Positions 59,113-60,003 of a stretch of DNA of 64,000 bases are shown piece after piece. The notes under the pieces are model-generated. The model was not told where the DNA came from, did not search any database, and saw only the letters and a program-made list of their open reading frames with translations. This DNA is from Candidatus Campbellbacteria bacterium (GTDB lineage: Bacteria; Patescibacteriota; Minisyncoccia; Phycocordibacterales; EsbW-18). Location of the stretch: positions 138,096-202,095 of the forward strand of contig CP064977.1 in the NCBI GenBank assembly GCA_016699465.1, in the 5' to 3' direction. Numbering within the stretch: the first letter of the stretch is position 1; the number at the start of each line of letters is the position of its first letter. A program made the translations under genes and the position numbers.

Positions 59113-60003
59113 CTACTTTTGTGATAATAGAGTAATTGCTTTCGTAATGAGTGGCAAAATATCGTCGTAAATATTAAGGTTCAAGATTTCAGAAACGCGG
59201 AACCAACGTCCATCATCAAGTCCCCCTGAAGTACCGAGAGTAATTTCATGAAACGGTGCTTCTGCCAAAAAATACTCAACTCGTTTGCGTACTTTTCCTT
59301 TTTCAGGATGCGACGCCACGTACTCATTCGAACCAAGTTCGTCTTGAATAACCACATCAAGGCCAAGTTCTTCTTGAATCTCTCGTGCTGTTCCCACCTT
59401 CACATCTTCATTCTTTTCAATTTTTCCCTTTGATAGCGTCCAGTGGCCAAACACATCGTGTACAAATGCAAGATAAATATCATTCTCATGTTTTGCATAC
59501 ACCACAGCACCACCAAGCATCTCTAACGGCAATTCTTCGTACGGCACATCTTTCTTTTTCTTAGATTGTTCATCTTTGCCCGGCTCACCCATTTCTTTGT
59601 ACACAGAACCAAGTACACCATTTACGAAACGGCCCGACGAATCGCCACCAAATGTTTTTGCAAGTTCAATAGCTTCGTTAATAGCAACCTTTGCAGGTAC
59701 GTGCGCACGATCACCAAACAAAAGTTCATACAAACCAAGACGCAACACACTTCGATCAACGAGTGAAATTTTATCGATAGGCCATTCAGGAGCTGCTTTT
59801 TGAATAATGGTGTCGAGGTCAACGCGCCGATCAATAACACCGTGCATCAACGTTTTCATAAAATCACGCTCGCCAATGCTGGGAGCGTACTCTGCTATGG
59901 TTGCACCAAGAATTGCGTCAGCTTCTTGTACGTTGACGTTCGAAAAATCTACCTGAAAAAGAGTTTGAAGAACAACTGATCGTGCTAAATGTCGATTACT
60001 CAT
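59113..60003 (-). CDS. nusB: NusB antitermination factor fused to a C-terminal NUDIX hydrolase domain
   Basis: N-terminal ~140 aa is NusB-like (ARSVVLQTLFQVDF ... NGVLGSV); C-terminal Nudix box GKIEKNEDVKVGTAREIQEELGL. Confidence 0.7.
   Translation of the reverse strand: MSNRHLARSVVLQTLFQVDFSNVNVQEADAILGATIAEYAPSIGERDFMKTLMHGVIDRRVDLDTIIQKAAPEWPIDKISLVDRSVLRLGLYELLFGDRAHVPAKVAINEAIELAKTFGGDSSGRFVNGVLGSVYKEMGEPGKDEQSKKKKDVPYEELPLEMLGGAVVYAKHENDIYLAFVHDVFGHWTLSKGKIEKNEDVKVGTAREIQEELGLDVVIQDELGSNEYVASHPEKGKVRKRVEYFLAEAPFHEITLGTSGGLDDGRWFRVSEILNLNIYDDILPLITKAITLLSQK

Follow-up and report, generated by a model that had tools for sequence, protein, structure and literature searches.

We found that the nusB gene of a Candidatus Campbellbacteria bacterium encodes a NusB domain joined by a flexible linker to an Ap4A-hydrolase-type Nudix domain, and that this architecture is present in at least 556 species genomes and in thousands of protein clusters. 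Across this family, the residues of a putative nucleotide pocket are nearly invariant, whereas the catalytic glutamates of the Nudix box are often lost. We consider it about an even chance (roughly 50%) that the Nudix domain tethered to NusB acts as a binding module for adenosine-polyphosphate-type ligands, with the pocket rather than catalysis under selection. NusB is a core, well-studied component of the rRNA antitermination machinery, and to our knowledge no NusB carrying a ligand-binding or enzymatic domain is known. No publication on a NusB-Nudix fusion was found in the literature on NusB and Nudix, on NusB in the Candidate Phyla Radiation (CPR), or on Nudix proteins in Parcubacteria.

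Architecture and neighbourhood of the fusion gene

The fusion gene lies in the window, that is, the whole 64-kb stretch of DNA analysed (Table 1). Its reading frame, read from the window sequence, is uninterrupted by any stop codon or change of frame. The encoded protein matches, with 100% identity, the NCBI entry 'transcription antitermination factor NusB [Candidatus Campbellbacteria bacterium]'. From N to C terminus, it has three parts: a NusB domain, a flexible linker rich in Lys, and the Nudix domain. The sequence-only reading had proposed a NusB-like N terminus and a Nudix C terminus, and both domains scored well above their Pfam cut-offs (PF01029, aa 7-136, 116.3 bits vs 23.1; PF00293, aa 184-277, 45.0 bits vs 21.1). 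An assembly error or frameshift joining two adjacent genes can be dismissed with near certainty, as colinear, unbroken ORFs of 295-312 aa were found in the independent genomes of all 80 nearest species, and both Pfam domains were present in 120 of the 120 best database matches. With no frameshift and with the Nudix threshold passed, the two doubts raised beforehand about the fusion, an artefactual join and a C-terminal domain that is not Nudix, both fall away.

Table 1. Coordinates of the fusion gene, its parts, and its neighbours in the window
Feature	Positions	Strand	Extent	Basis or remark
nusB::nudix gene	59113..60003	-	296 aa + stop	single ORF, ATG start
NusB domain, seven helices	59593..59994	-	aa 4-137	TIGR01951, PF01029, AF2
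Flexible Lys-rich linker	59527..59592	-	aa 138-159	AF2 and conservation
Nudix domain, Ap4A-hydrolase type	59116..59526	-	aa 160-296	PF00293, AF2, Foldseek
Nudix box GKIEKNEDVKVGTAREIQEELGL	59359..59427	-	aa 193-215	canonical, read from the sequence
rpmF (ribosomal protein L32)	60046..60336	-		PF01783, 50.3 bits; conserved upstream neighbour
rnc (RNase III)	58200..58895	-		PF14622, 133 bits, plus dsrm domain; conserved downstream neighbour
Long-range RNA hairpin	58894..59012	-		nusB::nudix-rnc spacer; 3' arm terminates within the start codon of rnc

Judged from its sequence, the N-terminal half is a genuine NusB. With the NCBIfam equivalog model 'nusB' (TIGR01951; cut-off 88.35), it reached 119.3 bits, and RsmB models remained far under their own cut-offs. 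Using phmmer, aa 5-139 aligned over the full length of the solved T. maritima NusB (1tzt, 9.8e-20), and the E. coli NusB structures 3d3b and 5lm7 likewise matched this half. AF2 predicted it to be entirely helical, with seven helices in aa 2-137 (pLDDT ~90). In Aquifex NusB, F122 stacks on U8 of BoxA, and E81 is also a contact residue (PMC3177189). These residues align with F126 and D83 of the window protein, suggesting that the latter may form an equivalent U8 pocket for BoxA RNA. In 56 divergent fusion proteins, F126 was conserved in 100% and D83 in 92%, and two residues of the Arg-rich N terminus, R4 and R8, were conserved in 91% and 94%, respectively.

In these respects, aa 1-137, the region above the equivalog cut-off, resembles the NusB of E. 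coli, T. maritima, and Aquifex known from the NusB-NusE-BoxA and rrnTAC complexes. The fusion protein differs from classical NusB in that a linker and Nudix domain, 160 aa in all, have been added, and in that its gene sits between rpmF and rnc. By contrast, classical NusB stands alone, with a length of ~140 aa, and nusB is not known to adjoin rnc in E. coli and B. subtilis. The window gene would serve as this organism's NusB, i.e. the BoxA-RNA-binding subunit of rRNA antitermination that partners with S10/NusE. No rRNA operon or BoxA was found within the 64-kb window.

The linker is predicted to be disordered. In the AF2 model, pLDDT fell below 50 at aa 141-150, and the pTM of the full-length protein was only 0.67 despite two confident domains. 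No interdomain contact hinting at allostery was predicted in the full-length model. Such a disordered linker without confident packing is consistent with a tethered module. Its GEPGK motif (aa 139-143) was kept in 85-88% of 235 relatives.

The placement of the gene in an rpmF...rnc neighbourhood, already suggested by the sequence-only reading, was borne out by the PF01783 and PF14622 matches of the flanking genes, and the order rnhB-rpmF-nusB::nudix-rnc-smc is conserved. Of 80 loci, 73 have rpmF upstream (median gap 58 bp) and 79 have rnc downstream (median gap 19 bp); 64 of these 79 downstream gaps were 60 bp or shorter, with some genes overlapping. Thus, rnc and nusB::nudix probably form one operon. 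In the window genome, the spacer between the two genes is unusually long (217 bp) and contains a hairpin with an MFE of -40.5 kcal/mol (z = -5.6; none of 200 shuffles folded equally well). This hairpin is specific to this genome, and its two arms recur upstream of smc.

All fusion proteins with an informative name, among species genomes and protein clusters alike, were from Patescibacteria (Paceibacteria/Parcubacteria). Over 235 relatives, mean identity was 63% for the Nudix half vs 61% for the NusB half. Full-length retention in at least 556 species, together with equal conservation of the two halves, indicates purifying selection rather than a decaying passenger domain. A split ancestral state, with nusB beside a separate Nudix gene, was searched for among the relatives and none was found. 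The apparent stand-alone Nudix match P0206 is actually a fusion gene cut short where its contig ends and followed by rnc, and P0263 comes from a 695-bp contig with a chimeric look. A true unfused NusB was identified (P0194, in L081), without a Nudix gene or rnc nearby. In addition, three proteins (P0247, P0251, and P0262) carry NusB with a different C terminus of ~200 aa that has no Pfam match; hhalign matched it only marginally with the Nudix profile, over the profile's C-terminal half (E 0.009, probability 4.6%).

The fusion could in principle be fortuitous, with a housekeeping Nudix gene joined to nusB in a streamlined genome and co-expressed with it while remaining functionally uncoupled. 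A flexible linker without predicted interdomain packing, and the existence of an unfused NusB in another lineage, would suit such an origin. We nevertheless regard it as improbable, as the fusion is fixed across the sampled species with equally conserved halves and the seeming stand-alone Nudix copies are truncated fusion genes at contig edges. Moreover, the loss of catalytic residues with retention of the domain, described below, is a poor fit to a housekeeping enzyme.

Two other Nudix genes had been claimed for the window. The ORF at 2833-3261 (+) is a real Nudix gene (53.8 bits, Pfam). The supposedly degenerate one at 60506-61018 was unsupported: it gave no Pfam or NCBIfam match even at E=10, and hhalign assigned it a probability of 0.15% against the Nudix profile of the fusion family. 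This ORF is lineage-specific, being found in 2 of 80 related loci. A weak tblastn Nudix match (25058-25303) falls within a gene resembling MreB and was judged to be due to chance.

Relationship of the Nudix half to known Nudix proteins

The AF2 model of aa 147-296 was of high confidence (pLDDT 95, pTM 0.88) and retrieved 583 Nudix matches from the PDB at E<=1e-3 using Foldseek. The first of these was the Aquifex Ap4A hydrolase 3i7u (aq_158; TM 0.79/0.89, rmsd 2.0). When the family profile was compared with PDB sequences, 3i7u was again the best match (1.4e-22), followed by CT771 (4ilq, 1.2e-16), the C. elegans Ap4A hydrolase 1kt9 (1.4e-13), 1vc8 (1.8e-13), and NUDT2 (3u53, 3.9e-13); Dcp2 decapping enzymes matched as well (5e-10). 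By profile and predicted fold, the Nudix half thus belongs to the asymmetric Ap4A/Ap6A-hydrolase branch, its best matches being Ap4A/ApnA hydrolases (3i7u, NUDT2, 1ktg, T. thermophilus Ndx1, and CT771). The Nudix box of the window protein, GKIEKNEDVKVGTAREIQEELGL, fits GX5EX7REUXEEXGU at all consensus positions, in agreement with the canonical box reported by the sequence-only reading.

The resemblance to Ap4A hydrolases extends, by alignment, to a W-T-x-x-K-G stretch before the box, an aromatic pair, and Lys at the adenine and P1-phosphate positions. The profile alignments, rather than superposed coordinates, paired K192, Y228, K240, Y279, and D281 with K42, Y82, K89, F128, and E130 of NUDT2, respectively. 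In Ap4A hydrolases, these positions are responsible for P1-phosphate binding, adenine stacking, and an N6 hydrogen bond (PMC4734340). The assignment of Y228 is ambiguous by one residue relative to the C. elegans enzyme, and single-sequence alignment puts this residue elsewhere. By alignment, the counterpart of E208 in human NUDT2 is E58; one solved human Ap4A hydrolase entry, 4ijx, is an E58A mutant. Despite these similarities, identity to Ap4A hydrolases is only ~21-27%. Those enzymes are stand-alone proteins in which the catalytic glutamates are strictly required, whereas the fusion family often has a degenerate box and its Nudix domain shares one polypeptide with a transcription factor.

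Mycobacterial MutT1 (Rv2985), a Nudix diadenosine polyphosphatase that also counts among the closest relatives of the Nudix half, gave the top single-sequence PDB match (2.4e-6) and occupied Foldseek ranks 3-9, but the NCBIfam MutT1 model reached 30.8 bits against a cut-off of 475. Like the fusion protein, it has two domains, one of them a Nudix domain of Ap4A type; however, the other is a histidine-phosphatase domain acting on what the Nudix domain produces, rather than an RNA-binding transcription factor. RppH is a Nudix enzyme of the broader ApnA-hydrolase-like group and is reported to act on RNA 5' ends and Np4 caps. The window protein falls outside this family, since NF001936 scored 21.7 bits vs a cut-off of 118 with the box region alone covered, and BdRppH (3ees) ranked 33rd in Foldseek (TMq 0.56).

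Conservation of the putative pocket and of the catalytic box

We then compared the putative pocket (W188, K192, Y228, K240, Y244, W267, Y279, and D281) with the catalytic box across the family. In the 80 nearest species, the pocket residues were retained in 80/80, whereas the full Nudix box was present in 38/80. E208 was retained in 45, E211 in 73, and E212 in all 80; in the remaining 35 species, E208 was replaced by K, V, A, or G. In a more distant set of 115 Paceibacterota proteins, 34 had the full box, and pocket residues were 86-100% kept. In the divergent sample, which consisted of 56 representatives of 50% clusters, all three REUXEE glutamates were present in only 10 and one or none in 32, and the full box was present in ~10. 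These 32 box-poor representatives (no more than one REUXEE glutamate) still retained W188 (28), K192 (29), Y/F228 (30), Y244 (29), W267 (29), and Y279 (28), although Y244 and W267 may be fold-core rather than pocket residues. Some divergent fusions fell under the Pfam Nudix cut-off (P0177, 20.1 bits) or gave no match (P0219). The divergent lineages without a box form small clusters and may be atypical. Cluster look-ups yielded hardly any taxon names for them, and a homology search from one of them, P0184, returned just a few close relatives, followed by mainstream Paceibacterota.

Many orthologs have therefore lost Nudix-box glutamates while keeping the fold and pocket, and the window copy is not one of them. 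As catalytic residues are often lost and the pocket is nearly invariant, the conserved function is probably ligand binding; the property selected across the family would be the pocket, with hydrolysis optional. This interpretation is supported by precedents in which the Nudix fold serves as a ligand- or RNA-binding module after loss of box glutamates, namely CFIm25/NUDT21 and NrtR. The RNA-processing factor CFIm25 binds Ap4A (Kd ~2.4 uM) and ATP without cleaving them (PMC2425470), and the ADP-ribose-binding Nudix domain of NrtR was ranked 10th by Foldseek. Both differ from the fusion in that homology is at the superfamily level only, their partners and contexts are different, and the box of the window copy is intact.

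A possible though somewhat unlikely alternative is that catalysis is the point, with NusB bringing an active hydrolase to the nascent leader or its surroundings. Its activity could be that of an Ap4A/Np4A hydrolase, or else of an RNA 5' pyrophosphohydrolase or Np4-decapping enzyme; the domain would strip alarmone-derived caps or the 5' triphosphate, allowing leader processing after RNase III cleavage. The window copy contains every Nudix-box consensus residue and looks hydrolysis-competent by its box. The near-constant presence of E211 and E212 in the nearest species, the adjoining rnc gene, and the nature of the nearest relatives of known structure, which are active Ap4A/Ap6A hydrolases, with Dcp2 enzymes also matching, point the same way. 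Furthermore, two reports (PMC7044304, PMC8833179) describe Np4A alarmones as a source of bacterial RNA 5' caps, and Nudix enzymes (RppH) and other hydrolases as their removers. However, the residue equivalent to NUDT2 E58 is replaced in 35 of the 80 nearest species, most divergent lineages retain the domain without a full box, and similarity to RppH is weak. Catalysis may nevertheless matter in the lineage of the window copy, in which the box is perfect, as it is in roughly half of the close relatives.

Alternatively, the Nudix fold might be a structural accessory that docks onto protein or the RNA backbone in the antitermination complex, with no small ligand. In E. coli, NusB/E is stably incorporated into the complex only with the help of SuhB, which binds the leader RNA (PMC6614801); SuhB is thus an example of an enzyme-fold accessory factor beside NusB/E on the rRNA leader. 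Tolerance of catalytic-residue loss and the conserved Lys-rich linker with its GEPGK motif would also be compatible with docking. We still consider such a role unlikely, because the most conserved residues are at the nucleotide-contacting positions of Ap4A hydrolases, which would be unexpected for a docking surface, and no partner interface could be identified. SuhB itself has an inositol-monophosphatase fold and is a separate polypeptide, and an equivalent role of the Nudix half would be conjectural.

Possible role in rRNA antitermination

The sequence-only reading suggested that the fusion couples antitermination to nucleotide or alarmone hydrolysis. The alarmone part of this proposal is plausible, as the Nudix half lies in the Ap4A/Ap6A-hydrolase branch. 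Hydrolysis is unlikely as the conserved purpose, as the box glutamates are dispensable family-wide and the putative ligand residues are invariant. No pointers specific to (p)ppGpp emerged from our analyses of the window protein and its family.

From the pocket conservation, we infer the following arrangement. The linker of ~20 residues would tether the Nudix module to NusB on the nascent rRNA leader, and the module would bind an adenosine-polyphosphate moiety where NusB sits. Candidate ligands are a free nucleotide of the Ap4A/ApnA type or the ppp- or Np4-bearing 5' terminal purine of the leader. Such binding could make rRNA antitermination and maturation responsive to a nucleotide, or could let the module grip the 5' end during these steps, and nusB::nudix would be co-expressed with RNase III. 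In lineages with a complete box, including the window copy, the bound ligand would probably also be hydrolysed, whereas many other lineages would bind it only.

A bolder and rather doubtful extension of the ligand-binding interpretation is that the NusB of Paceibacteria carries a built-in reader of adenosine polyphosphates, which some lineages would also use to cleave them. NusB would hold BoxA on the nascent pre-rRNA while the Nudix domain captures Ap4A or the ppp- or Np4A-capped 5' end of the leader. If this were true, antitermination and RNase III-linked maturation would respond to alarmone level or 5'-cap status. Such regulation would be new for the bacterial rRNA transcription complex, and this NusB would be the first Nus factor equipped to sense nucleotides through a domain of its own.

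Within the CPR, an entire class (at least 556 sampled species) has fixed this domain and conserves it as strongly as NusB itself. As these proteins are labelled simply 'NusB', their second domain has been hidden in databases. The identity of the ligand could connect Ap4A-type alarmones or non-canonical RNA caps with rRNA synthesis, and could reveal how ribosome production is controlled in minimal-genome organisms.

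The NusB-Nudix fusion and its distribution

The sequence-only reading described a NusB protein fused to a Nudix hydrolase domain with a canonical box, and the domain searches agreed. One ORF encodes both domains, and both scored above their Pfam cut-offs: NusB (PF01029) at residues 7-136 (116.3 bits, cut-off 23.1) and NUDIX (PF00293) at residues 184-277 (45.0 bits, cut-off 21.1), the latter being a threshold proposed in that reading as a check. The NCBIfam NusB equivalog TIGR01951 also matched (119.3 bits, cut-off 88.35), and the Nudix box GKIEKNEDVKVGTAREIQEELGL (residues 193-215) fits GX5EX7REUXEEXGU at all consensus positions. 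An NCBI entry on an 811-kb contig has the identical sequence and bears only the title 'transcription antitermination factor NusB [Candidatus Campbellbacteria bacterium]', with Nudix unmentioned; source databases call the fusion proteins simply NusB. NusB and Nudix domains are each well known. A full-text search of the published literature found no description of a NusB-Nudix fusion; what is new is the combination, its fixation across a CPR class, its operon link to rnc, and its pattern of selection.

Features of the window discussed in the text
Feature	Position	Strand	Remark
nusB::nudix	59113-60003	-	One 296-codon ORF, ATG start, no internal stop
GEPGK motif	59575-59589		Residues 139-143, linker start
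rpmF (L32)	60046-60336	-	Upstream of nusB::nudix
rnc (RNase III)	58200-58895	-	Downstream of nusB::nudix
RNase HII	61131-61712	-	Farther out than rpmF
SMC protein	54743-57043	-	Farther out than rnc
Spacer hairpin	58894-59012	-	Between nusB::nudix and rnc
Recurring hairpin arms	~57038-57165	-	Before smc start codon
170-aa ORF	60506-61018	-	Between rnhB and rpmF
278-aa paralogue	61724-62560	-	After RNase HII
382-aa paralogue	62564-63712	-	In tandem with the 278-aa paralogue
Other Nudix gene	2833-3261		
SAM-I riboswitch (RF00162)	2612-2718	-	53.8 bits; directly upstream of metK-like ORF
metK-like ORF	1470-2561	-	

A homology search with the window protein ranked its matches among at least 8000 candidates. 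Both Pfam domains were present in all of the best 120, which were inspected (63-100% identity, 295-324 aa). Scanning one genome per GTDB species, we found at least 556 genomes encoding a relative. In each of the best 80 of these, the match covered residues 1-290 or more of 296 and the fusion ORF was uninterrupted (295-312 aa), which refutes a frameshift artefact, named in the sequence-only reading as a possible explanation and now virtually without credence. Informative organism names among the relatives were all from the Parcubacteria/Paceibacteria (Minisyncoccia) group of Patescibacteria, including Campbell-, Wolfe-, Taylor-, Zambryski-, Lloyd- and Nomurabacteria and Paceibacterota. Cluster representatives at 50% identity were searched exhaustively with HMMER, which yielded 136 proteins at E ≤ 1e-30; ~56 of these were full-length fusion proteins, with identity down to ~31%. 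NusB-Nudix is a clade-wide architecture, not an artefact.

One protein from this search, P0194, is an unfused NusB of 152 aa, 54% identical to the NusB half (locus L081 of GCA_013387205.1, 4001-4459). Its surroundings differ: the locus has neither rnc nor rpmF nor a Nudix gene close by, so an unfused NusB still exists in another lineage. Apparent stand-alone copies of the fusion-type Nudix were truncated fusion genes at contig ends. Three NusB proteins of ~340 aa (P0247, P0251 and P0262) carry a ~200-aa C-terminal extension lacking a Pfam match, which hhalign aligned only marginally (E 0.009) with the C-terminal half of the Nudix profile built from the fusion family. Either the extension is what remains of a Nudix domain after extreme divergence, or these proteins are another kind of NusB fusion.

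The two halves and their conserved residues

The NusB half aligns over the full length of solved NusB structures, among them T. maritima 1tzt (1e-19) and E. coli NusB from the lambda-N and rrn antitermination complexes. Aquifex NusB, solved with NusE and BoxA, stacks F122 on U8 of BoxA and reads the N3 of that base with E81 (PMC3177189). By alignment, these residues correspond to F126 and D83 of the fusion protein; among the 56 divergent full-length fusion proteins, F126 is present in 100% and D83 in 92%, and arginines R4 and R8 near the N-terminus are likewise retained. We therefore treated this half as a functional NusB, with predicted S10 and BoxA binding. There is no rRNA operon within the window.

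The full-length AlphaFold2 model contains two confident domains with a pTM of only 0.67 (pLDDT <50 at residues 141-150), and the Lys-rich tether between them is modelled as flexible, with no interdomain packing predicted. The linker opens with GEPGK, which 85-88% of 235 relatives retain; such conservation of a short linear motif within a flexible segment suggests that a partner binds there.

Residues 147-296 were modelled separately (pLDDT 95, pTM 0.88) and adopt the Nudix alpha/beta/alpha topology. Against the PDB, Foldseek placed Aquifex Ap4A hydrolase 3i7u first (TM 0.79/0.89, rmsd 2.0 Å), next mycobacterial MutT1/Rv2985 ('Nudix diadenosine polyphosphatase') and the ADP-ribose-binding NrtR Nudix domain, and then the C. 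elegans and human Ap4A hydrolases, Chlamydia CT771 and T. thermophilus Ap6A hydrolase Ndx1; BdRppH ranked only 33rd. A family profile of 48 C-terminal domains, run against PDB sequences, matched 3i7u (1.4e-22), CT771 (1.2e-16), 1kt9 (1.4e-13) and Ndx1 (1.8e-13), followed by NUDT2 (3.9e-13), MutT1 (~3e-10) and Dcp2 (5e-10). The fold ranking and profile matches thus place the modelled Nudix half in the asymmetric Ap4A/ApnA-hydrolase branch. RppH membership was ruled out (21.7 bits, cut-off 118).

Profile alignment equated K192, Y228, K240, Y279 and D281 with K42, Y82, K89, F128 and E130 of human NUDT2; these equivalences come from alignment, not superposition, with a one-residue ambiguity relative to C. 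elegans, and a single-sequence alignment gave a different placement. In Ap4A hydrolases, residues at these positions bind the P1 phosphate, stack on either side of the adenine ring and form a hydrogen bond with its amino group (PMC4734340), and a conserved stacking Tyr/Phe after the Nudix box was also noted in work on CFIm25 (PMC2425470). W188, K192, Y228, K240, Y244, W267, Y279 and D281 were each kept in 80 of the 80 nearest species, Y244 and W267 possibly as fold-core rather than pocket residues. The complete Nudix box was found in only 38 of the 80, and in 35 the 'RE' glutamate, E208, has given way to K, V, A, G or Q. By alignment, E208 corresponds to E58 of human NUDT2, which one solved entry carries mutated to alanine (E58A).

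Of 115 Paceibacterota proteins in a second, more distant sample, 34 retained the full box and 46 had all three REUXEE glutamates, with pocket residues 86-100% kept. Only 10 of the 56 divergent representatives had all three glutamates and 32 had one or none; these 32, box-less lineages being small clusters, keep W188 (28), K192 (29), Y/F228 (30), K/R240 (28), Y244 (29), W267 (29) and Y279 (28). Nudix domains of some of them score below the Pfam threshold. Mean identity across 235 relatives was 63% for the Nudix half versus 61% for the NusB half. With the Nudix half conserved like NusB, and the pocket kept where the box is lost, the domain is thus under strong purifying selection, mainly on putative ligand-binding residues and not on catalysis.

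These patterns bear on the coupling to alarmone hydrolysis proposed from the sequence: the Ap4A/ApnA-hydrolase assignment makes a link to a nucleotide alarmone plausible, but catalytic residues are often lost, and profile and fold comparisons revealed no specific tie to (p)ppGpp. That catalysis is the point, with an Ap4A hydrolase or decapping enzyme delivered by NusB, is accordingly a tentative and rather doubtful alternative.

A probable operon with RNase III

The rpmF ... rnc neighbourhood noted by the first reading is real, with all three genes on one strand. The one-strand order rnhB - rpmF - nusB::nudix - rnc - smc is conserved across 80 related loci (rnc in 79, rpmF in 73, smc in 70 and rnhB in 65). 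From the nusB::nudix stop to the rnc start, the median distance was 19 bp (≤60 bp in 64 of 79 loci, several overlapping), the rpmF-nusB gap had a median of 58 bp, and in the window the coding strand shows no terminator-like site in the gaps separating these genes. Judging from this spacing, co-transcription with rnc is therefore likely. RNase III is the enzyme that excises pre-rRNAs. Beside the fixation of the fusion in at least 556 species and the equal conservation of both halves, a fortuitous fusion of two flexibly joined domains, without functional coupling, seems quite improbable.

In the window, nusB::nudix and rnc are separated by an unusually long spacer of 217 bp; among 79 relatives the maximum is 167 bp. 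Within this spacer lies a long-range RNA hairpin (14+7 bp, arms ATCCCGTTAGAAGCCGCGATCGC ... GATCGCGATCTGCTTCTAACGGGAT; MFE -40.5, z -5.6), whose 3' arm ends inside the rnc start codon (AUG). Both arms recur with equal spacing before smc, where the fold is weaker (z -1.4); blastn did not find the hairpin in the 80 related loci. E. coli RNase III autoregulates its own mRNA via a stem of a kind that the spacer hairpin resembles; the hairpin may serve RNase III autoregulation or processing, or it may occlude translation.

Two further Nudix genes had been claimed in the window. The one near the riboswitch is a real Nudix, while the supposedly degenerate one, the 170-aa ORF, has no Pfam or NCBIfam match and an hhalign probability of 0.15% against the Nudix profile. 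Only 2 of the 80 related loci share this ORF, which is therefore a lineage-specific insertion. The tandem paralogues share a nearly identical N-terminal ~130 aa, followed by ~20-aa 'LTSAEGLxLPxxIGGxLxL' repeats of differing copy number, for which Pfam matches were marginal only (HNH_5, DUF7131).

A proposed tethered nucleotide-binding module

At roughly even odds (~50%), we consider the protein a genuine NusB with a tethered Nudix module that binds adenosine polyphosphates. NusB, with S10, would hold BoxA close to the start of the nascent rRNA leader, and the module would bind either a free Ap4A-type nucleotide or the ppp- or Np4-bearing 5'-terminal purine of the transcript. Bacterial RNAs are now known to carry Np4A-alarmone caps, which Nudix and other hydrolases remove (PMC7044304, PMC8833179). 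CFIm25, a Nudix protein with a degenerate box, binds Ap4A and ATP without cleaving them (PMC2425470) and is a precedent for such binding in RNA processing. E. coli SuhB, required for stable integration of NusB/E (PMC6614801), is a precedent for an enzyme-fold protein beside them on the rRNA leader. SuhB could also be the model for a ligand-free structural docking module, an unlikely alternative beside the retained pocket residues. With a tethered nucleotide-binding module, ligand would probably also be hydrolysed where the box is intact, as in the window copy. Acting from an operon shared with RNase III, the module would add a nucleotide-dependent input, or a 5'-end grip, to antitermination and maturation.
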